A DNA stretch of 61,223 nucleotides from Rhizaria sp. SCN 62-66 (lineage: Eukaryota), in NCBI GenBank assembly GCA_001724265.1, contig MEDY01000153.1, positions 1 to 61,223 on the forward strand. Direction: 5' to 3'. The notes beneath the pieces are model-generated. The model made no database searches, was not told where the DNA came from, and was given only the letters and a program-made list of their open reading frames with translations. Made by a program: the position numbers and the translations under genes. Positions 2,921 through 23,900 of this stretch are shown piece after piece (position 1 is the first letter of the stretch; the number at the start of each line of letters is the position of its first letter).

Positions 2921-5900
2921 ATGTCTGCCACAGGCCCTGGACCCAGCGCTCTCATTGGCGCAGCTGGCCTCGGAGATCCAGCCTTGCCCTCCGGCGCGCC
3001 TGCGCCTGACCATCACCATATGACGCATGTACCAGTGTTATTTAACTCCTCTCCTGCGCACGGAGACCCCGCGGGCCTGCAGTCTTCCTCACACGCAGCC
3101 TCCGACGTGTCACCCGTTGCGCTCTCCCAAGCCCCCACAGCCGCCGTCGCCGCCGCCGCATCACAACTTGCGCCCGCCGCTGCCGCCGCTGCCCCGCTTA
3201 CCGACCTGCCCCTTGCCGACGCTTCCGTTGACAGCAGCACAACAGACGACGCCTCCGAGGCGTTCCTGGAGGAGGAAAGCCGCGACTATTTCGACGCAAC
3301 CCACGAGTTCAAGCTCCTTCCTGCCGCCACCGTCGCCGCCACCAGCTCCCGTCGCGCGCGCCCTTCCCGCCGCACCGCGTCGTCCGGCGCAGCCCCCGTC
3401 ATCGAGACCGAGCCCCAGCCCACCGGGACGCCTTCGACTGCGTCCTCGGCGGTGGCCTCGGCGGCGTACCGCGGGATCTTCGACGAGGTCGACGACGGGT
3501 CGCGCCCCCCGGGCCACGACATCGTGCCCTTCCTCACGCTTGCGGAGCTGCGATCCTTCTTTCTCGACGGCGGCGTCGCGCTGCTCGACGATTCTTTCAC
3601 GCCCGAAGGCGACCCGTGCCCGCACGCGCGCTGGGACGGCGCCGTAGCCGTGGCGGCCGCCGAGGCCGACGAGGCCGCGCAGCTCGCCATCCTGCGCCAG
3701 TCCCCCAACGCCGTCGCGCGGGACCTAGCGGCCGCCGTCTCACCCTCCGCGCCGGCCTTTGCGGGCGCCGCGGCGGGGGACGACGGGTGGCGCGCGCGCG
3801 TGGCGACGGGGCGGCCGCCGGAGTCGTTCGCGTCTCTCGACGAGGTCAAGCGCTTCCGAAAGGCCGCTGTGGGATCGATCAAAGAGGCGGCGCATCTGCT
3901 CGATGTGTTTGACCACTACGCGGCGTACCACCACGCCACCAAGGGCATGCTTAAGCGGCAGGAGGCGCAGATCGACCGACTGGAGTGGAAAGCGCGCGCT
4001 GTGCTGGGAGATATGAGGAGAAAGTTCCTCCAGAGGGAGATGTGCACCGACGAAAACCAACAGTTTCTCACAGAGCTCCTCCGCACTCAGGTACGATTAA
4101 TAACACAATCACTGAATACCGTAGCTTTTTTATCAAACCCAAGTTTCCCTAATTTTGTGTATTTTAACTCACCAGTGACTTCTTGCGTCTTGGCTCGTCG
4201 TTTTTGGATCCAGGCCCTGGGCGACCCGCGCGTCGACTTCACCCGCGTGCGCGACCTCTGCCCGACGAACCGCCACCTGCCGAACCCCGACAAGGTGCGC
4301 GCCGCGCTCAAGCAGTGTGCGCGCGACTGGAGCGTCGAGGGCGAGAAAGAGCGCGCATCGTGCTACGGCCCCATTCTCGAGGTACGCAACTTGAACAAGC
4401 TCCTAACCCGGTCGCCAGCAACGGATCACTTGAATATACCAGTTTGTTTGTACTCTACTGTTACGCTTGTTGCAACCATTTTTTTCAGTGTTTATGAGAA
4501 GTATGATAGCACACAAAATATTTCTAACCTAGTTCTATCATTTTTGTTGTCTGAATCTCACGCGATACGCAGACACTGACGCGTTTGTTTCCTGACGAGG
4601 ACGCTCGTGGGGACCTCGCAGTCTTGGTCCCTGGCACAGGCCTCTCTCGCCTGCACTATGACATCGCCCGCATGGGCTTCCAGTCCCACGGCGTCGAGTT
4701 CTCCTACTACATGCTGCTCCCGGCATACTACCTGCTTAATTGCGTTGAACGCAAGGAGCAGTGGAACATCTATCCCTGGGTCCACGCCTCCAGCAACGTC
4801 CGCGCCTCTGTCGACCGCGTCACTCCCATCAAAGTACGTCTCGTTTTTCCCAAACCACATCGTCGCGCGAAGTGTCATTTCATTATTTAGATAGACATGT
4901 TGCATTCTACACTGTTTCAACTCATTTTCCTTCTCCCGTATTTTGTTTCTGCTGTTGCAGATCCCCGACCTGGTGTGCGGGTCGGTTCCGCTGGCGCCCA
5001 AAGCCGGCGAAGGCTTCCGCATGATGGCGGGTGACTTCCTCGACGTCATGGGTCCCCACACGGCCGACACGTACGACGCCGTAGTGACGTGCTTTTTCAT
5101 CGACACGGCACACAACGTGCTCGACTATCTGCGCCGCATCTCGCTCGTGCTCAAGCCTGGCGGCAAGTGGATCAACCTCGGACCCCTGCTCTACCACTTC
5201 GCGGACCTGGTACGCGCTTAAATATGATATTTGTACTGTATACTTAATGCGCCGCTGTTGAATTTGGTACCGTCCACAATGTTTATTACCGCTCTTCCTC
5301 AACGACGCAGGTTCACTCACTTTAAGCCATCTTTTCTAACATCGTCGCTTCACCATGAACTTCCCCGTTTTTCTCTATTCCATGTATGTCTACCCTCTCT
5401 AGCCTGGTGAGGAATCGATTGAGCTGGCCTGGGACGAAATTCGCGCCGCAATGGTGTCTTTCGGCCTGTCGCTGGACACCGAGTCGTTCGACAACATTGC
5501 CAACTACGCCGTCGCGCCCCACGCCCTCATGGCCACAACTTATAAGTACGTTTCACGAAACACGCATATATACGGCGCAAACGCACTCCCATTGAAAGAT
5601 TGACTCTGATGAAACTAGGAGCGTTTCTTTACACATGTGCGCTCTTGATTTTATAGCGTCAACGCGATGTATCCCTCTTCGTATGCCCTATTTCACATCC
5701 ATTCTTGCTCACCATCACCGCTTTCTACATGCACTTCTGTCCGCAGCTGCGTCTTCTCCGTGGCGACCAAGACTTCGGACACGACCGACACGGACGGCTG
5801 GGACCCGACCGTGTTGACCGCCATCCTAACCGCGGGCGCCATTGCCGACGCGCAGCAGCAGCAGCAGCAGCAGCAGTTGCTGGAGCAGCAGCAGCTTGAT

Positions 5901-5979
5901 CAGGGCCATGACCATCAGAAGCACGCCCGCAGGCAGATGCGCAAACAACAAAAGCTCCTGTAGCAGCAGCAGCAGCAGC

Positions 5980-6020
<41 letters not shown>

Positions 6021-6275
6021 AGTCAGCCACAAGCCCCAGAGGATTCCGCCTTGCTGCAACAGCAGCTCCAGCAGTTGCAGCAGCTGCAGTTTCTGCACAA
6101 GCAGCTTCCGCAGCAGCAACATCAGCAGCAACAGCAGCGCAACCCTGCTCACAGCCACTCTCACGGCCACGGTCACGGCCACGGTCACGGTCACAGCCAT
6201 GGACTAAGCGGCAGCCCTTGCGGCGGCCACGACGACGGCAACGGCGACGGCAGCGAGTATAGCCACGCGCAGTAA
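2921..6275 (+). CDS. CARNMT1: Carnosine N-methyltransferase (N2227 family); exons 2921-4090, 4214-4381, 4573-4833, 4961-5209, 5403-5545, 5747-6275; 839 aa if TAG 5961 and 5985 are sense; stop TAA
   Basis: Motifs KVRAALKQCARDWSVEG, VLVPGTGLSRL (SAM binding), EFSYYML, AGDF, VVTCFFIDTAHNVLDY, LKPGGKWINLGPLLYHF, ESIELAWDEI. All five introns are GT-AG and keep frame. Under the standard code the CDS would end at 5963. Confidence 0.88.
5853..6137 (+). repeat. CAG/CAA trinucleotide (poly-Gln) tracts in the last CARNMT1 exon, containing two in-phase TAG triplets
   Basis: (CAG)n runs are directly visible; TAG at 5961-5963 and 5985-5987 are in register with the CAG units. Confidence 0.9.
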
Positions 6276-8482: not shown

Positions 8483-8829
8483 TTCCTCACTCCCCCATCC
8501 GCCCAGACTCTTCTCTGCTTGTCACTCGCAGTGCTGAGAGTTCTGATCCCCAAACAAATAAGCTCGCGCGCACTCTCGCCCTTTCAAAAATACAATTCCC
8601 GACAAATGAATGCTTTATAAACGTGTCTCTTGTGACAAGCCTGGTGATTTCACACGTCGTGACAAAAATATAATGACTCGTGAGCTTTCTTATTGAACTG
8701 ATTAATAAAGGGTCAACTTTTAATGATAATAATTGGTAGCGATTAACAGTTGCTCTTGGATAAACCGATGTTATCGGGCAAACCTCTGAAGGCTATTGGC
8801 TTGTCCCAGCTTGTAGTGATCAGCGTTTC

Positions 8830-11800
8830 TTAGAATGCAGACCCAGCCGCCCCTCCACGCGTGTTGACCTCTGCAACAAACTGCTCGTAGTCAGTCTCCA
8901 ACTTGTGTCCGCCAAAGCAGCCGCGGGGCCCGGCACAGCGGCAGGTGCCGCCGTACTGCGCGGGCAGCTGGTCGGGCGCGATGATCTCGAGCAGCGTCTT
9001 GGCGGCGTCGGCGCCGTTGCAAATCATTGTCTTCTTGATGGTGCGCTCGTGCAGCAGCGGCTTGACAACCTTCCAGATCATGTTGAACCACGACGGTACG
9101 TTGATGACGACGATCTTGGCGCTGCGCACGGGGTAGTGCGCTTGCAGAAGCTTCGACACGGACTTGACAAAGCTCATGGCGGAGCCGCCAATCATGTCGC
9201 GCATGCCGATGCCCTCCAGGTCGAGCACGGTGACGCACACGGCCTCGAGCCGGTTGTCCAGCACCGACCACTGGTACTCGCAGTTGTGCAGATAATGCAT
9301 CTGCAGGGCCTCGTCGCTCACGCCCGCGGCCTTGATGGTCTTGATGTTGAGCTTTCCGGGCCGCTCAATGTACACAAAGTGGCCGTCGCGCGAGTGCCCG
9401 TGGAACACGTGCCCGCACAGCTCGCGCACGCGGCTAAACTTCGGGTACGGCGTCGCGAGCAGCGAGTTGATGCCGTGCTCGGCGCGCCAGCGCTTGGTTT
9501 CGACCCAGCGCACTTTGGCCTTGGCCACGTCGCCCATCTCGGCCGCCACGTAGCGGCTCGGCATGTCAAAGCACAGCCGGTCCAGCACGGCGGGCGGCAG
9601 CGCCGTCGCGGCGGGCGGGAAAGGCCGGTCCTCGTTGCGCCACGTGAGGTTGAACTGCGGGTGGAACACGGTGCGAAGAGCCTGTACGTAACAAGTTAAG
9701 AAACAAACGCGAATATGAAAAAAACGGATTGGCATAAGAGGAATAGAACAAAGAAAAACAAGAAATTATGTAAAAGATCGAAGATCGTATGTAGTTGCAG
9801 TTTAATTGCTACCCACGTCGTTGTCCGTACCTCGTCTGGGTTGAGGTTCACCGGCTTGTTGCCACAGTGCTCATGGTCAAACAGCACCCAGTGGCGCGTG
9901 GGGTCGCCGCCGAGGAAGCCGCCAATGCCCTCGCCGGCGCCCGCAGTCGCGACTCTGGCGCCGCCCGCCGCGGCCGTCGCGTCTGCCGTGACGCCGGCGC
10001 TGCTGTCGGCGGGCGTGGCGTACGACTCAGAGAACGGGTTGGTGTCGATGAACGCGTCATCCGTCGTCGCCGTCTCCGCGCCCGCGCCGCCCGCAGCCGC
10101 AGCGGCCGCAGCAGCAGCAGCCGCCGCAGCAGCGCGACGCCGGCCGCCCCCGGTCCCGCGCCTGCCAGCGCCCGCGCCGCCGCTGCCGGCGCCGCTGCTC
10201 TGCGTAAGTGCAAGCTCTCTCAGCACGAAGGCCCTGATACGAGCGCGCTCCTCGCGGACTTGCGCGCGCGCGCGCTCGCGGGCCCAGGTGGTAGCGCCCA
10301 CGGCCGCGGCGGCGACGGCCGCGCCTGCGCCGACTACGTGCCACAGCGACACGGGCGCGGCCTCGGTGTAAGCCTGCGCGAGCGAGAGCAGCACGCGCGC
10401 GATGAGCGCCAGGCAGCTCAGCGCGCCCACCAGCCGCCACGCGCGCCGCGCCGCGCCGGCGCCGGAGCCTGCGGAGGCGGACGAGGACGAGGCGTCGCCG
10501 TCAAGGGTGTCTGCGGAGTCGCCCGCGGCGGCCGCGGCGGCGAGCGCAGAGTCAACGCTCTCCATCGCGCTCTTGGTCAGGCTGCCACTGCTGCTCGCAC
10601 CGCTGCTGCTCGCACCGCTGCTGCTGCTGTTGTTGATGGTGCTGTTGTTTGCGCCACTCACGCTGGCGTTGGCGTGGCTGGGGCTGTTGTTCTTGTTTGC
10701 TGGGACTTGACCTGGGGCGATGTAGGTACCTTCGGCGCCCCCCTTAGACCCAGCACCCTTAGACCCCGCGCCCGCGTTGACACTGCCGCGGTGGCCATTG
10801 ATGTGCCCCTGCGCCGCACCGGCGCCCGCAGTCGTAGACGCCACCGCGGCCGCGGAACCACTGGCGGAGAGCGAGAGCGAGAGCGAGAGCGCGGGCGCAG
10901 TCAGCGGCGCCGCGCCTGCGGCCCCGCTGTCGCCCGAGGAGGCCGATGGCGTGAAGGGCGGCGACGTGGCGGACACGCGCCGCAGCGGCGACATCGGCGT
11001 CGTCGGCCGCCGTGCGCCGCCGCCGTTGCCGCCGCTGAGGCTGCCGCGCGGGCCCCCCGCCGCTGGCGTCCCGGGGGCAGCAGCGCCGGCCGCGGCGCCG
11101 CCGGCGGTGGCAGTGCCGCTGGCAGCGGCCGAGGAGGAGGAGGAGGAAGAGGACTGGTGGCTGTGCGCGCGCATGCGCAGCTCGCCGAGGCTCAGTGTGC
11201 TGCCGTCACTGGACGAGAGACTACTCCTGGCGCCGCCCCCGCTGCCGTAGCCGTGGCCGTGGCCGCTGTGATCGGCGTCGGCAGCTGCGTGGACGCTGGC
11301 GGCCTCGCTGTGGCCGCGGCTGTCGCCGTCGCCGTCCTCGTCCTCGTCCTCGTCCTCGTCTTCGTCGTCGTAGCGCATCTCAGCGTCCTCCCAGTCGCTG
11401 TCGTCCTCGTCATCATAGCCGTCTCCGTGTCCGTGCCCGTGGCCGTGGCCGGTGGGGTGGGCGCCGCCCTTGTGACTGCGGGCCTCGGCGCGCGCGGCCG
11501 CCTCGGCCGCCACAGCGGCGGCCGTCGCAGCGGCCGTCGCAACGGCTGCGGCGGCGGCGGCTTGGTTGTGCGCATGCACTTGCGTATGCGACTGTAATTG
11601 AAGTTTACCGGGCGTCGCAGCAGCAGCACCAACAGCGGAAGTAGCAGTCGCAGTTGAAGTAGTGGCGGCAGCAGCAGCCGCAGCAGCAGCCGCAGCAGCA
11701 GCAGCCGGCGCAACACCGGCGGCCCCGCCGTTCGCTGCATTGCTGCCGCTGGTGGCGGCGGCGAGCGCGGCCTCCGCAGCCACGGCGGGCGGTGGCGCCA

Positions 11801-13472
11801 CAGCCGGGTAGATGACGAAGGTGAGGTCGAGGCCCTTGCCGTCGCACACCACAAAACCGCCCGCCTGGCTCGAGTCCTCGCAGAACGCGCCCCCGCCGCC
11901 CCCGCCTACACTGGCGCTGGCGCCGGCGCCACTGTCGGAGACGGAGGAGGACGACGGCTGCAGCGCGCGGCCGCCGAGCTGCGGCGTCGCCTCGCTCTGC
12001 GCGAAAGACTGTGAGTGCGAATGAGACAGTAGGTGCGCGGGCAGCGCGCCGCCGGCCGGCGCGGCGGGCGTGGCGGGCGCCGAGGCCGTGACCGCGATGC
12101 TCACAGAGTTGGATCTGCTCGAGCCCACGGCATGCCCGTGAGAGTCCAGCAGGGCGATTGCCCCGCCGACCATGACGCCGCCGCCGGGGCCGCCCGGGGC
12201 GCCGACAGCAGTACTCACGCCGACAGCGGAGCCCGCTGCGCTCTTGCCGTCCTTGCCGTCGCCCGCCTTGGCGTCTTTGCCACCGCTCTTGGTGTCCTTG
12301 TCCTTGCCCTTCTTGGAGCCGCTCGAGGCGACGAGCGAGCTGGCGAAGGACATGAGCTTGCTCTTCTTGGGCTTGAACGCCGTGAGCCGCTTACTGTAGC
12401 GCGACATGGACCGGTTGGCGGTGTCGATGTCCACGAAAACGGGGTCGCCCACGCGCACCGGCGCCAGCGGCGGCTTGTCGGCCGACGCGAACGACACGTG
12501 GAGCTCGCCGCGCGTGTGCCGCGGGCGCGGGCCGATGTAGCCGGTGAGCCAGCCAGTCTTGTTGTTCCACACCGCGCCCGACTGGTCAACGAGCACGACG
12601 GTCATGCCGTACAGCACGGGCTCGCGCAGGCGGTGGCGCAGCACGTCCTAGTTCACCGCCGCGTTCGTCGACAGCACCGTGAACACGTGCGGCACAAACC
12701 GCGCCGCGCTACCAGCAACGCCGGACTGCGGCGCCGCACCGCCCGCACCGCTCGCAGAGCCGAGGCCCGCGGCCGCGGGGCCGTGGCTCGAGGCCGAGGC
12801 CGCGGAGGCGGCGATGGACGACGTCGACGTCGAGTGCATTAGCCCGTCGCCCGCGCCCGCCGTCCCCGCCGCAGCCGCCGCGGACGACGGGTCGGCAGGG
12901 ATGTAGAGCGAGCGCACGTGGGGCGGGATCGAGGTCACGATGCCGTGGCCTTTGTACGGCGCGGTGACGTAGCCGACGAAGCCGCCCGCGGAGCAGGGCG
13001 CGTAGGGCGACACCGTGAAGAGCTTGATCTGATCGCCCAAGTACAGGCGTGAGCCCCACGCGCCCGCCTGGTTCGCGCCGAACGTCGTGGGGCCGCTCGC
13101 CACGGGCGCGGAGGCCGGGGCCGCGCTCGGAGCAAAGGCAGCGCTGCTCGCGGCTCTACTAGCGTTCGTAGCAGAGGTGCCAATGTTGCTGTGATTGTTA
13201 CTGCTGTTGTTGTTGTTGAGGACGGGGGAGGTGGGCGGCGACAGAGCCGGTGCGGGTCCGGGGGTGTATGGCGTCGCGGGGTACGCGGCAGCAGACGAGG
13301 CGGAGGCAGAGCCCGCAGGCGTGGCATGGCCGTGCGTGTTGGCGTTGGCGTACAAGCTGAGGTTGGGGTATGAAGGAGACTTCACCGGGGTCGTCGGGTA
13401 GTGCTGCGGGCCTGAGACGCCGTTACTGGCGGCTAAGCCCGGCGCCGCCGAGTAGCCGGGAAGGTGGGACAT
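8830..13472 (-). CDS. Large CRAL-TRIO/Sec14 lipid-binding protein with an N-terminal globular domain and two predicted TM helices; exons 13472-9831, 9681-8830; 1497 aa with in-frame TAG at 12648-12650; stop TAA
   Basis: C-terminal Sec14 motifs (WRAEHGI, FHGHSRDGHFVYIERPG, VLDLEG, HYPVRSAKIVVINVPSWFNMIWKVVKPLL, IAPDQLPAQYGG). ORFs 12648..13658 and 9696..12644 are in the same frame and separated only by TAG-GAC. GTACGG..ACAG intron at 9830-9682. Confidence 0.8.
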
Positions 13473-14417
13473 CGCGCGCGGGGCGAGCAGGGAGCCGCGG
13501 GAGGCGCCGGTGGGGCGGGGCCGGGTGCGCGGGGGGAAGCGAGGCGAGAAAGCGCGAACGAGGTGGTTGGGTGCGAGTCGACGCTGAAAGTAAAGACAGT
13601 ATCGAGGTGTGATAAGATATGAGTACGTGAATATGATAGAGTGTGAATAAACACACATGGGAAATGTGGTGGTGAATCGCCAGCCACGTGTTGATGTAGG
13701 CAGTGACGCGCTTGAAATGTGGCCGCGGCAACAATGCTAACGGCGCGCGACCACCCTTTTCGCGACACGATCGTCTTAGTACATTTAAGAGTTGTTAAGC
13801 CATCGTTATGGTATCTTATGGAAGCCATTTGCAATATACGTATACTGCAACGAAAAGTTGCAGCAACGTCGCGAATACTCGACTGTATCGTGTTTACCAA
13901 CCACCTCTCCGCCTTGGACTGGTACGTTGTCCCGATGCTGCCTAACGCCGAAGGAAGCCGAACAACACCATTTTTGCATACAGAAATCTCAAACAATACA
14001 GTACGACTAAAAGAAACAACATATACTGTACAGTGAAGTGTGTGAATGATTAAAAACATATATTTATTAGAATAAAGTATAAAGCTCGCGTGCCTATTCT
14101 CACACAGCTGCATGCGTAACACAGCAGTGAGACTCCTGAGGCACGCCGGTAGCCATGAATATACGTCATAAAAAACGCTTGTAAGTAACACGGGAGGGCC
14201 AATCTTTTCTCAGATCATATCATAAACAACATCTCCAACAAAAGAAATACCAACAACAACAACAACCACAGCAGCATCGGGAGTAACAGCAGTAGCAGAA
14301 GATGAAAGGAACGCACAACACTGCGAGTCAAGACTTAACTCAACAACACACAGTGTTCACGCCGACACATCTCTCTTTCAGAGCTCATGCCGTTCTCGCC
14401 GTCATCAGCCGGCTACT

Positions 14418-17616: not shown

Positions 17617-19392
17617 ATGTCGTCCTTGGCTCCCCGTCTGCGAGCCTTGCTGCCTCTGCAGGCGCTCGCGCCCGCGCCCAGCGTCGTCGCCTCGCTGCTT
17701 CCGCGTCACGCTGGCCCGTCTCCACCCTCATCGATCACGCCGCCTTACGGATACGCCCAGCTGATGGCCTCCGAATCGTCTTCCGCGCGCCCCCGCCCAT
17801 CGGCAGCCGCCGCCGCTAAGGTCGCCTGCCCGCGTCTCCCCAGCAACAATATCTCCCGCTCTGTCTTCGCAGCGTCAAGCCTGAGCCGCCCCGCGCGCGG
17901 CCTGCGTGCGCCCCAGTCGGCGCCGCACCGGCCTTTCTACTTGTCCGCGGGCGGCAGCGGCGGCGGCGGCGCGGGGAGCCCCAGTCCGCCGTCGTGGGCG
18001 CCCCGCGCGCTGGCGCCTCTCGACACGCCCTACACGGCGACGCCGCGCAGCGTGCTCGTGATCAAGAAGTGGGGCTCCCGCAGCGCGACGCGGTACGCCA
18101 ACGACGTGGCGGCGCTGCTGACGGAGCGCGGCGTGCAGGTGTTCATCGAGCCCACCACGGTGCTCGACTATGACGAACACACGCAGTACCCCACCATCCT
18201 CGACCTCATCGCGCGCGCCGACCCAGCTGCCGAGAGCGTGTTCACGCACAACTTCGCGCCCGTTATCACAGACTCGTTCACGTTCGGGCACAAGGCGCTT
18301 GCGAGCAACGGCGGCGGCGGCGCCAGCGCGGGCTTCTACAGCCCAAGCTCAGACTCGGTCTCCACGTCGACCGCAGAGAGCTCCGCTGCATCAAACGCCA
18401 ACTCGAGCCCTGGCTCTGGCCTCAACCCCGCTGCCGCCGCAGAGCCGAGTCGCGAGATCCCGGACTCGGACATCTCGTGCTCGTCGTCCTGGGCGGGCTT
18501 CGCGCGCGCCCCGGCCCCCGCCGCGGCACTATCGGCGCTGGACCCGCGCGAGTGCATCGCCTACGCGCGCAAGCTCGACTCGTGGCAGCGCCATATCGAC
18601 CTGGTCGTCTCCATCGGCGGCGATGGCACGCTGCTGCACGTTTCCACGCTCTTCCCGCACACCGTGCCGCCCACGCTGGCCTTCGGCTGCGGGTCCTTTG
18701 GCTTCCTCATGCCGTTCAACCCCGACTTCGCCGGGCTCGCCATCGACGCGCTGCTCGCGGGCCGACTCCGCGTGTACAACCGCTCCCGCCTCGCCTTCAA
18801 GGTCGGTGGCGTGGCGGGCTACGACGCGCGCGGCTCGCCCTGGGTGCCGCCCTTCTCGGCCACGGACCCGCATTGTTACCACCTGCTCAACGAAGTCGTG
18901 CTCAAGCACTCGTACGGCCTTAACGTCGGTGCCGGCGTGAGCGAGATCGAGTGCCGCATTGACGGAGACGTGCTGGCGCGCTTTCAGGGCGACGGGCTCA
19001 TGATTGCCTCCCCGACGGGCTCCACGGCCTATAGTATGGCGGCGGGGGGCAGCATCGTGCACCCCGCGCTGCAGTCGATCCTGATCACGCCCATCTGCCC
19101 GATGACGCTGTCCTCGCGCCCGCTGGTGCTGCCAGGGCAGAGCACGGTGACGCTGACGCCCATACACGATGCCGTGTTGCTCGAGGGTAAGTTCGGCCGC
19201 GTGATTCAGCCGCTCGAGGTGGTGACGGTGCGCCAGAGCGAGTACCCCGTGCCCGTGTTCGCGCGCATGTCCGTCACCACCGACTTCGTCACGGACCTGG
19301 GCTCACGGATGAACTACGCGCGCATGGTGCGCGTGCGCCGCGACGAGCCCTCGCTGCTGCCGCATCTCGCCAACGCCACCGCCACTGCTACA

Positions 19393-19442
<50 letters not shown>

Positions 19443-20253
19443 TAGCAGCAGCAGCAGCAGCAGCAGCATTGATGGCAGCAGCAGTAGCAGCAGCAGTATG
19501 GTGTCAGACACGGTCACAGCGAGTGCAAGTGTGTGCGCCAGCGCGCCCGGCGCGAGCGCGAGCGCCAACGGCGCGGTGCCTGCGTGGCAGCTGTCGGGCG
19601 TGTCGCTGTCGCCGTCGTCGGCACACCTGCACGCGCGCGAGGCGGCGCAGCACGCGCAGCACCAGCAGCACACGGCCCTGTTCGGCGGCCAGCTCGTGGG
19701 GCCCGCGGCGGGCGGCGGCGGCGGCGCGCACGGCCGCGACGGCGCCGGCAGCGGCAGCAGCGGCAGCAGCGCGGGCGCGGACGTGAGCGCCGGCAGCGCG
19801 CCCGGGGTTGTGTTCGTGCCGTCTAGCCACGGCAACACGTTCGACGGCCACGCCAACGCTTCCAACGCCACGGTGACCGCTGGCCCCACTGACGGCGCCG
19901 GTCGGAGTAGTGATGCTGCTGCGAAGCACAAGGTGGGCGAGGCAACGGCCAAGGGCTCGAATGGCCCTGCTGGTGCGGCTGCTGATAGCAACGCTGCCGG
20001 TGATAATGCAACGCAGGATGGGTTTGACCCTGTCGCTGCGGCCGTCAACAACGCCGCACAGCTGCAATAGCAAGCGCAGGCGAAGCAGGCTCAGCGGCAG
20101 CAGAAACAGCAACAGCAGAAGCAACAACAACAGCAACAGCAGCAGCCGCAGCAACAGGCCTTCGGTCCGATCGGCTCGTTCATGTCGAAGCGCGAGCAGG
20201 AGGAGGTGACCAAGGACCGGGACATCGACGGCATGGGGCGCGCTCGCAAGTGA
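17617..20253 (+). CDS. NADK: ATP-NAD(H) kinase, possibly mitochondrial; single exon; 878 aa if TAG 20068 is sense; stop TGA
   Basis: VSIGGDGTLL, LLNEVVL, GDGLMIASPTGSTAYSMAAGGSIVHP, ITPICP..LSSRPLVLP. The Arg/Ser/Ala-rich, acid-poor N-terminus resembles a presequence. The standard code would stop at 20070. Confidence 0.9.
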
Positions 20254-20941: not shown

Positions 20942-23900
20942 TTAGAAACGCTCGCGCGCGGCTGTGGCGACGTCGTTGGCGGTACGGCGGTTGGCCGTCA
21001 GCGCGCTGTATGCGTCGCGCACGCCGCGGAAGAAGCCGGGCTTAACGCGCGCCTCAGTGCTCTTGTCGTTGGGGTCCTTGACGAGGATGAGCTCGGTGGC
21101 CGTCATCGTGGGCAGCTCGGCAGAAGAGATGGACACGATGGCGCCGACCCAGCGTGAGGACGCCGTGTCGAGCTTGGCGGTGAGCCCGCCGAAGGTGTAG
21201 ATGTGCTCGCCCTTGGGGCCGCGCTCGAGCACGGGCGCGGGGAAGCGCGCGACCTCGGGGCGCGACGCGGTGGTCTGGCCGGCGACCTCGATGCCGACAA
21301 CGGCGTCAGTGAGCTTGACCACGCCCTCGGGGTCGGTCAGTGCGACGGAGCACGACAGCGTGTCGCCCTTGGTGTACTCAGACACGCCGCCACAGTTGAT
21401 CGACACGTAGGGCTGGTTGATCTGGAGCGCGATCTCGTCGAAGAACATCGCGCCGTCGGCCTCGCCCTCGACGGCGTCGACGGACATGCGGATGCGGAAG
21501 TTGTTGGTCCACTTGAACGCGGCCTGCACAGGAGAAGACACCCACAGCGCGCGGTCCCACTCCATCACCATGGGCTTGCCCGTGGGCGTGCCCGAAGCGT
21601 CGGTGCGGAACGTGCCCATGACGGTGCGCAGACGCGACGTGGGGTCGTCCTCGGCGTTGCGCGTCGACACGGCCTCGGCGGTGATGGTCCAGCGGTACAC
21701 GACGGCCGAGGAGCCGGAGTACTTGATCTCGAAGCGGAGGTTGTCACCGAAGCGCGCGGGGCCGATGTCGTCCTTGTTGGCGCGCACGGGCAGCACGGAC
21801 GACTTAAGCGGAAGGGCGGGGGCGTACACCTCAGTGTCGACCTCGGTCTCGGCCTCGAACTCGACGGACGCGTTGGTGAAGGCGCCCATCTCAAGGAAGG
21901 TGCCGACGCGGGAGTAGGAGCGCGCAGCGTTGGCGTTGCACACCGAGGTGTAGCCGCGCTGGCCGAGCGTCTCGGACGTGCAGAGCGAGTCGGGCATCTT
22001 GGTGATCATGTACCGGCCAACGGTCTCGGTGTCGGTCTTGGTCACGACGTAGTTGTTGCTGTTGTACTTGCGCACACGGGTCACCTTGGCGCAGTTGGAG
22101 GCGGCCGAGAGGAAGGCCGCGTCGTACTTGGAGTTGAAGTCGAGGCGCTGGAGCGCGTCGAGCGAGGCGGGGCCGTTAAAGTAGTCGTGGCGCGTGAAGG
22201 GCAGCTCGTTGGGGCCTTCGTAGGACTTCTCCTGGGGCGTCGCGTCGACGGCCTGCCAGCCGTTGCCGTTGGCGATGTCGGTGCGGCGGAACCACACATC
22301 GGCCCAGACGTGGAAGTTCCAGATGGACGCGTCGTCCTTGGCCTTCTCCCACGTGTACTCGCCCGACGCGGACTGGGTGAAGTGCGTATAGCACTTGTTG
22401 TCCTTGGACACGCCAGTGCGGTGGATGTACTTGTGCGCCGAGTCCATGTTGGTGACGGAGCGCGTGGGGTAGCCGATGGAGCGCGCCATGGACACGAGGA
22501 TGGCGGAGAAAACCCAGCACTGGCCGTACTTGACGGGGCTCTGCGACGTGACGAAGCGCGCGAAGATGGGCAGCGACGACGTCCACGTCCAGGGCGCGTT
22601 GCCGTCGGCGTAGTTATTGTCCCAGCGGCCCGCGAGGACGCGGTAGCCGGCCGTGGTGAGAAAGCGCGACACGCGCACAGGGTCGGCGCGCTGGGCGATG
22701 GTGAAGCGGAGCAGGAAGCCCATGGTGATGTCAATGACGGTCATGTCATACTGGTTGAACGCCCAGGGGATCCAGGTCGGCGGCGCGCGCGAGGAGCCCT
22801 GGTAGATGGCGCCGAACTCGCTGAAGAGGTGCTCGTTGAGGTCGACGTTGAGCTCGGAGTTGGAGCCGTACTTAACGCGGTCCGCGGCCGAGACGTAGGA
22901 CACGCAGTCCGAGTGCATGGGGTTGAAGACGAAGTAGAAGAGGTCCTTGGCGCGGTACACGAGCTTGGTGCCGACGACAGCCTCGAGGTAGTAGCGGCCA
23001 ATGGCGCGCTTGTTGGCGAGGATGATGCGGCCGCGGTCGACCTTGAGCAGCGTGGCGTCGATGGCCTGGCCGATCTGGTCGACGAAGCGCAGCTTGGAGC
23101 CCGCGGGGAGGGAGTTGCGCGGGATCTGCACCGCGAAGGCGGCGTGGAGACGCAGCACGATGGCGTTAGCGGGGCGCGCGCCGGACGTGGTGCGGTACTT
23201 AGTGGTCGAGTGCACCTTGAGGTTGGTCTCGTAAAAGGTGCTGTAGGTGTCCAGGTTGGTCATCGGCAGCGAAGAGAGCTCCGCGGGGATCACGGTCGAG
23301 CCGGCCTCCATCGCGGCCTCGGAGACCACGGCGGCGGCGGCAGCCAGGGTCGCGGCGGCCTCGGCGCTAACCTCGGTCTCAGCCTCAAGCTCGGCCTCGA
23401 CAAAGGCCTCGGACTCAGCCTCAGCCTCAGCCTCAGCCTCGACCTCAGCCTCGACCTCAGTCTCGGCTTCAGCCTCAACCTCAGCGTCAACCTCGGCCTC
23501 AGCTTCAGTCTCAGCCTCAACCTCAGCCTCGGCCTCGGCATCAACCTCGGCATCAGCCTCGGCGTCGACCTCGGCCTCAGCGTCGGCCTCAACGAGCGAG
23601 GTGTACTGGGGCTCAATCACAATCTCCGACTCGGACTCGGTCTCAGCCTCCGCATCAGCCTCGGCCTCGAGCTCGTTCTCAGTCTCAGACTCAGCCTCGA
23701 GCTCGAGCTCGGACTCGTTCTCGGCCTCGGCGTCCATCTCAGCCTCGGCGTCGAGCTCGGCCTCGGCGTCGGCATCCATCTCGGCGTTGAGCTCGAGGAG
23801 GGCGAGCGTGTTGGCGTCAGCCTCAACCTCAAGGTCGGCCGCGAGGTCGAGAGCGTTGAAAAGCCCGCTCTCGGCCTCCACGGTCGTGGAGTGGGCCATG

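Follow-up and report, generated by a model that had tools for sequence, protein, structure and literature searches.

An in-frame TAG within one conserved domain of a CRAL-TRIO gene suggests that UAG is a sense codon in a GC-rich wastewater eukaryote

We analysed contig MEDY01000153.1 of assembly GCA_001724265.1, deposited as Rhizaria sp. SCN 62-66, over its full length of 61,223 nucleotides (nt; hereafter the window). A gene of the CRAL-TRIO type on its minus strand contains a single in-frame TAG. The sequences on both sides of this TAG belong to a single conserved domain and a single gene, and it is likely that UAG is an amino-acid codon in this organism and that termination occurs at UAA and UGA. 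Such a reassignment fits everything seen in the window. The earlier note on this DNA had claimed that the TAG is translated; comparisons of sequence support this claim, as an inference from the single domain, the single gene and a second gene, for NAD kinase. The gene models used here are approximate, being based on open reading frames (ORFs), Pfam matches, composition and donor motifs. The features of the CRAL-TRIO gene are the following, with G+C content given as GC, expectation values as E and the predicted local distance difference test as pLDDT.

9831..13472, minus strand: exon 1, 1214 codons, beginning with the ATG at 13472 (coding segment score 568.9)
12648..12650, minus strand: in-frame TAG, codon 275, read from the sequence and unchanged in two other studies
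12327..13094, minus strand: N-terminal beta-rich domain, residues 1-256 of an AlphaFold model
13070-12867 and 12710-12327, minus strand: the structured parts of the N-terminal domain
12711-12866, minus strand: disordered Ala/Ser/Gly-rich insert of about 52 residues in the N-terminal domain (pLDDT below 50)
9682..9830, minus strand: the only recognised intron, 149 nt, GC 0.36, GTACGG...ACAG, phase 0
8833..9681, minus strand: exon 2, 283 codons, containing the CRAL_TRIO domain
8947-9408, minus strand: CRAL_TRIO domain (Pfam PF00650, E 5.2e-30, 104.7 bits against a cut-off of 22.6)
8830..8832, minus strand: TAA terminator of the gene, beyond which GC drops from 0.67 to 0.39

Exon 1 encodes the N-terminal domain, a long Ala/Ser/Gly-rich linker and a predicted hydrophobic stretch. 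The match to PF00650 stands above the Pfam gathering score and places the protein among the CRAL-TRIO / Sec14 lipid-transfer proteins.

The minus strand reads ...GCG GCG GTG AAC TAG GAC GTG CTG..., with the TAG at 12650-12648; the span singled out in the earlier note (12653-12642) is AAC TAG GAC GTG, and translation returned the peptide quoted there on both sides of the TAG. The two flanking ORFs, 13736-12651 and 12647-9699, are in a common frame and directly adjacent, just as had been described, with no spacer. When 13736-9696 is translated in this frame, the TAG is the sole stop in 1347 codons (X363 of P0001). It is codon 275 of the 1497 codons of the gene. The “over 1200 intact codons” said to follow it, including the Sec14 domain, number 1222 by our count and contain neither a frameshift nor a second stop. 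Codon log-odds in the TAG frame are +0.53 for the 100 codons upstream and +0.69 for the 100 codons downstream, with a G+C content at third codon positions (GC3) of 0.90 and 0.96, respectively, and between -0.36 and -0.99 in the other two frames around the TAG. The GC of the 150 nt on either side is 0.77 and 0.71.

The letters of the TAG are real and not an assembly error, because contigs from other studies carry the TAG unchanged. We aligned the Logan contigs of four runs to positions 8700-13800. A 2537-nt contig of run X3, from a different study, covers 11817-13800 with no differences and no gaps, and a 655-nt contig of run X4, from a third study, covers 12092-12746 with no differences. A CAG in place of the TAG, named beforehand as a finding that would speak against translation, is absent from the contigs of both. 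Their depths are 5.3 (X3) and 4.1 (X4), and no alternative letters are listed for any run, although Logan contigs drop rare variants and a minority allele at the TAG could be missed. Run X4 behaves as DNA, as one of its contigs (9383-9932) passes unspliced through the intron. A protein that corresponds to the product from the ATG to the TAG (P0003, 274 residues) is recorded from 6 contigs from three sources.

We then investigated the homologues of the domain around the TAG. An exhaustive HMMER search with a query spanning the TAG (X at the TAG), followed by local re-alignment of the matches, found 62 proteins at E <= 1e-3. The alignment crosses the TAG column in 29 of the 62; one of these, P0037 (2019 residues, repetitive), is doubtful and was excluded, leaving the 28 homologues used here and in the column counts. 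A conserved strand F.PS.FTV precedes the TAG, and the motifs V.YGD..VLVD, VWNNKTG and GY.GPRPR follow it. A C-terminal CRAL_TRIO domain is present in 18 of the 21 homologues scanned, which upholds the view that the two halves are one gene. The nearest named homologues are oomycete CRAL-TRIO proteins (Saprolegnia parasitica XP_012194898, S. diclina and Pythium insidiosum), and they share the architecture of an N-terminal domain (with YGD, VWNNKTG and GY.GPRPR), a linker and a CRAL_TRIO domain. These proteins have 675-787 residues, are uninterrupted and show 47-49% identity over the matched stretches of the domain query, whereas the window protein has 1497 codons, large low-complexity insertions and the TAG.

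An AlphaFold model of the N-terminal domain, made from a 37-sequence alignment with the TAG read as Q, has a pLDDT of 75.3 and a predicted template modelling score of 0.70. In the model, the TAG corresponds to residue 149, residues 131-240 have a pLDDT of 84-98, and the insert (residues 77-128) stays below 50. A single domain, modelled with confidence, takes in strands that precede the insert, strands immediately ahead of the TAG and strands beyond the TAG. The claim that the TAG splits an N-terminal globular domain was therefore borne out, both by the 28 homologues that align across it and by a model in which the halves fold together, and that both flanks belong to a single domain is not in doubt. 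In a Foldseek search, all 50 matches listed were N-terminal beta-trefoil domains of ryanodine receptors (RyR), with weak E values of 1e-3 to 2.6e-2 and target-normalised template modelling scores of 0.56-0.61 for isolated RyR domains. The domain sequence matched no Pfam family and, in the PDB, gave only matches with E > 1; one homologue, P0028, has a sub-threshold match to Ins145_P3_rec (E 0.025). Going by the model, we tentatively regard the domain as a beta-trefoil of the RyR/IP3R (MIR-like) kind. Low-complexity insertions like that at 12711-12866 are present in most proteins of the window.

The context of the TAG is not intron-like, as the flanks have a GC of 0.71-0.77 and are coding in the same frame on both sides. 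All 15 exon-to-exon gaps that we examined, measured from the donor to the next coding segment, start with GTACG, span 115-219 nt and have a GC of 0.33-0.46. On the strand of the TAG, the nearest upstream GTACG is at 13353, and an intron starting there is unlikely, because conserved coding sequence would be deleted. An intron ending in AACTAG/G had been named as something that would overturn the reading; it found no support, since one has to go as far upstream as 13353 to meet a GTACG and the stretch in between is conserved and coding. The statement that there is no GTACG donor holds for the upstream side up to that position but not downstream, where the pentamer occurs at 12612-12608 on the minus strand, 36 nt beyond the TAG. 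This pentamer lies inside conserved Tyr-Gly codons; it is coding sequence, not a donor, and is unable to remove the TAG. The donors of the window are unusually uniform, with GTACG usually following CAG or GAG (for example, at 9830, 15832, 27045 and 46207); one further donor is GTATG (50892).

Other in-frame TAGs were sought across the window, which was cut into 34 coding segments (14,028 codons) with only TAA and TGA as hard stops. These segments contain four in-frame TAGs and no TAA or TGA, the zero counts being partly due to how the segments were constructed. No pair of segments in the same frame is separated by just a TAA or a TGA. Besides 12650, the exonic in-frame TAGs are at 20068, 5961 and 5985, while the TAGs at the segment edges 5400 and 51048 are 3' ends of introns. 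Blind scans for stop codons by GC3 and codon log-odds were discarded, because TAG is common in the antisense frame with the same wobble position, and this frame confounds them. The features of the two other genes with in-frame TAGs are the following.

17617-20253, plus strand: NAD kinase gene, 7.4 kb from the TAG of the CRAL-TRIO gene
20068..20070, plus strand: in-frame TAG of the NAD kinase gene, located in Gln-rich sequence; the TGA at 20251-20253 comes 60 codons later
20146..20223, plus strand: C-terminal NAD kinase motif downstream of the TAG, matching P0307
5961..5987, plus strand: two TAGs (5961-5963 and 5985-5987) within a glutamine run in the last exon of a carnosine-N-methyltransferase-like gene

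The NAD kinase frame runs from the kinase domain through ...AAQLQ-TAG-QAQAKQ... to the TGA at 20251, after which GC falls from 0.61 to 0.39. Its last 31 non-repetitive codons score +0.80 in this frame and -1.29 and -1.43 in the others. The best database match to this NAD kinase, P0307, is 72% identical and uninterrupted, and has the motif at its extreme C-terminus. The motif after the TAG is identical to residues 571-596/605 of P0307 at 18 of 26 positions (pairwise E 1e-11). A similar G.F.SKR-like ending is found in P0310 and in the NAD kinase of L002, a metagenome contig, which is a more distant relative. As the C-terminus of P0307 matches the tail after the TAG, the conserved end of the NAD kinase lies, by this comparison, beyond its TAG, and the gene gives independent support for TAG translation. 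The methyltransferase-like gene is only suggestive of a sense meaning. In its last exon (5748-6275), a run of about 19 CAG/CAA codons holds both TAGs and is followed by a Gln/Leu-rich tail with a His-Gly repeat up to the TAA at 6273-6275. Positions 5748-5960, outside the repeat, fix the frame (score +0.41, GC3 0.86); past the TAGs, two frames score alike.

We also investigated stop and codon usage. About 15 gene ends were recognised in the window, as segment ends judged to be terminal and not splice donors, so that their number is approximate: TAA ends 10, TGA 5 and TAG none. GC in the 150 nt past these ends is mostly 0.33-0.57. If TAG ended 20% of genes, the probability of finding none in 15 would be 0.035 by our own arithmetic. 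TAA is the commonest terminator (10/15) despite the 80-90% G+C at third positions. Among the 14,028 codons are 4 TAG, 3 TTA, 7 CGA, 466 CAG and 38 CAA; UAG therefore occurs about once per 3,500 codons, in the range of the rarest sense codons, TTA and CGA. In L001, a metagenome contig whose NAD kinase is 51% identical to that of the window, TAG ends 4 of 6 long ORFs, and the lack of TAG ends in the window is thus not a general trait of the group.

If UAG is a sense codon, the ribosome would decode codon 275, most likely as glutamine; this position is flanked by two conserved strands of the beta-trefoil-like domain, and the stretch that separates them is variable. Translation would then continue for 1222 codons to the Sec14-type lipid-binding domain, and the CRAL-TRIO gene would be intact. 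A tRNA with the anticodon CUA, or an equivalent, would be expected to decode UAG, and eRF1 would presumably no longer act on it. Glutamine is our best guess for the meaning of UAG, since three of the four TAGs are in glutamine runs and TAG is one transition from CAG; leucine or another residue may be meant instead. The assignment to glutamine would be that of NCBI translation table 15, which is also the code of the fornicate Iotanema spirale. The rarity of UAG suggests that the reassignment is young or that the codon is poorly decoded.

Several observations weigh against a sense meaning of UAG. The alignment of homologues that had been proposed as a check crosses the TAG, but its column is variable and identifies no residue: among the 28 homologues it holds G in 7, a gap in 6, N in 3, D in 2, and E, Q, P, K, A, V, S, C, R and I once each. 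The TAG of the NAD kinase gene and the two of the methyltransferase-like gene fall in low-complexity sequence at the C-terminus, and a truncation there could be tolerated. UAG is rarer than the TTG/CTG ratio (36/512) predicts for a settled synonymous codon. It is also far rarer than in the rhizarian exLh, as the sections of PMC5304391 on that organism present it: about 16 genes of the window contain four UAGs, of which three are in glutamine runs. That all four in-frame stops are TAG is weak evidence, because the codon usage of this genome makes most single-base nonsense mutations TAG. Stray stops do occur in metagenome contigs, as in L002, which has a TAA where P0310 has Glu. One of the gene ends (55075) has a GC of 0.69 beyond it and is possibly not terminal. 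In the RNA runs X7 and X9, no contig covers 12600-12700, and the polyA run X9 covers only 10471-10726. ARAGORN found no tRNA gene in the 61-kb window, and no eRF1 gene is present in it; a search of the window against Rfam likewise gave no family match. The code is deduced from one 61-kb contig with four TAGs and about 15 gene ends, a small sample.

Among the alternatives, the one that survives best, though it is unlikely, is that UAG is still a stop with a useful level of readthrough, by a near-cognate tRNA-Gln or owing to its context, so that both products are made. The scarcity of UAG (4 in 14,028 codons) would suit such a leaky or ambiguous codon, and codes with an ambiguous stop/sense codon exist in other eukaryotes, as far as published descriptions of them go. 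The codon after three of the four TAGs is CAA or CAG, a neighbour that favours readthrough in yeast and plant viruses, where UAG-CAR-YYA is the leaky 3' context motif. These three lack the rest of this motif, and in the CRAL-TRIO gene the codons after the TAG are GAC GUG, which is not such a context. Partial termination at this TAG would be costly, as it lies 1222 codons before the end of the protein and upstream of the intron. Moreover, a working stop would not predict that none of the 15 gene ends is TAG.

Under the standard code, the TAG would be a premature stop, and the sampled populations would have fixed, or would commonly carry, a null allele or a young pseudogene; we regard this as quite improbable. 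A single C-to-T change in CAG gives TAG, and a recent mutation could leave the downstream sequence intact. The sampled populations are near-clonal (0 differences in 2 kb), so that the persistence of the TAG across studies says little, and the stray stop in the L002 contig provides a precedent. On the other hand, recent nonsense mutations would be needed in three of about 16 genes within 61 kb, and the 1222 downstream codons of the CRAL-TRIO gene would have stayed without a frameshift or second stop. The NAD kinase would lose a motif in which 18 of 26 residues still match P0307, and the absence of TAG from all 15 gene ends would be left to chance.

It is very improbable that the TAG is removed from or changed in the mRNA, whether by an unusual short intron, such as a 30-nt GTGCTG...AACTAG, or by U-to-C editing. 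A GT..AG stretch of 30 nt, a multiple of three, does end at the TAG, and the length of the loop at this point differs among homologues. This stretch is GC-rich, unlike the AT-rich introns of the window with their GTACG donors and lengths of 115-219 nt, and its removal would cut part of the conserved FTV strand. The other three TAGs would be left unexplained. We know of no nuclear U-to-C editing of such a kind. Sequencing or assembly error, conceivable in a metagenome assembly of modest depth, has a negligible likelihood given the identical letters in the X3 and X4 contigs and the six contigs that yielded the product ending at the TAG.

Sense decoding of UAG is the reading we prefer. The contig sequence is present in bioreactor and wastewater metagenome runs; GC3 is about 0.8-0.9 in its exons, and its introns and spacers are AT-rich. 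The closest database proteins are 61% identical for SF3B3 (named matches at most 42%), 77% and 60% for a DDX21-like helicase (named at most 47%), and 72%, 56% and 51% for NAD kinase (named at most 36%). These best-match identities for the three proteins gave no lineage placement. Weak hints place the organism near the stramenopiles, as the best named matches are the oomycete CRAL-TRIO proteins and a Blastocystis NAD kinase. An alignment search of metagenome contigs with SF3B3 returned no loci and did not recover the contig of the window itself either. The same search with NAD kinase gave 42 loci, only two of which are related (L001 and L002), and neither is a close relative by sequence. L001 (1-21365) is a eukaryotic locus of 52% GC, apparently intron-poor, which carries the third-closest NAD kinase (51%); its neighbouring Dicer-like, JmjC, Ssu72 and TPR genes show no synteny with the window. 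L002 is an AT-rich NAD kinase locus with 63% identity over the core. At its in-frame TAA (2257-2259), which is probably an error or a strain variant, the near-identical P0310 shows a Glu; the two also differ by Phe/Val close by. A search of the window for low-complexity repeats yielded no dispersed element suitable as a probe for further contigs of the organism. A transglutaminase-like gene contains a long imperfect tandem array (23294-23836, minus strand) with 12-/18-nt spacing and 31 in-register copies, which presumably encodes a short peptide repeat.

Taking these observations together, we lean slightly towards an independent reassignment of UAG alone, with glutamine as its probable meaning, in a deep-branching eukaryote that is rich in GC and lives in wastewater reactors. 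The change would be at a stage that is early or marked by low usage, in which UAG has gone from gene ends and occurs mostly through CAG-to-TAG changes in glutamine runs. If true, a nuclear code with only UAG changed would have arisen once more, in a lineage other than the ciliates, fornicates and rhizarians, and would here be seen near its beginning. Low usage of UAG is the expectation for a recent or weakly decoded reassignment, a stage that is rarely observed. Another case would provide an independent data point on stop-codon capture, in a very GC-rich genome without close sequenced relatives. In practical terms, gene callers that assume the standard code would truncate or split the genes of this organism, and P0003 would be such a truncated product.

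In the passages of PMC5304391 and PMC11687900 that treat them, UAG-only nuclear sense codes are known from a handful of eukaryotic lineages, and UAA is the main terminator in the lineages described. A literature search found no GC-rich wastewater eukaryote with a change of UAG, which is not proof of absence. In exLh, a rhizarian of the Sainouroidea, UAG alone is changed and means leucine; the account of it in PMC5304391 gives 384 in-frame UAGs in 71 genes, at conserved leucines, and 56 UAA, 15 UGA and no UAG among the terminators. Phyllopharyngean ciliates independently assigned UAG to leucine or glutamine and prefer UAA, as described in part from metagenome-assembled genomes (PMC11687900); UAG is in widespread use in them. 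The window is unlike ciliates in having many genes on both strands, GTACG introns of 115-219 nt and exons that are very rich in GC. No affinity to ciliates is seen in its conserved proteins, the named matches reaching at most 42% (SF3B3) and 47% (DDX21-like helicase). The code of Iotanema spirale, as PMC5304391 sets it out, has UAG as glutamine with UAA and UGA kept as stops, and resembles the one proposed here in that only UAG is changed and UAA is the main terminator. Iotanema is an anaerobic fornicate known from transcriptomes, whereas the window comes from a GC-rich, intron-bearing genome in which UAG is very rare.

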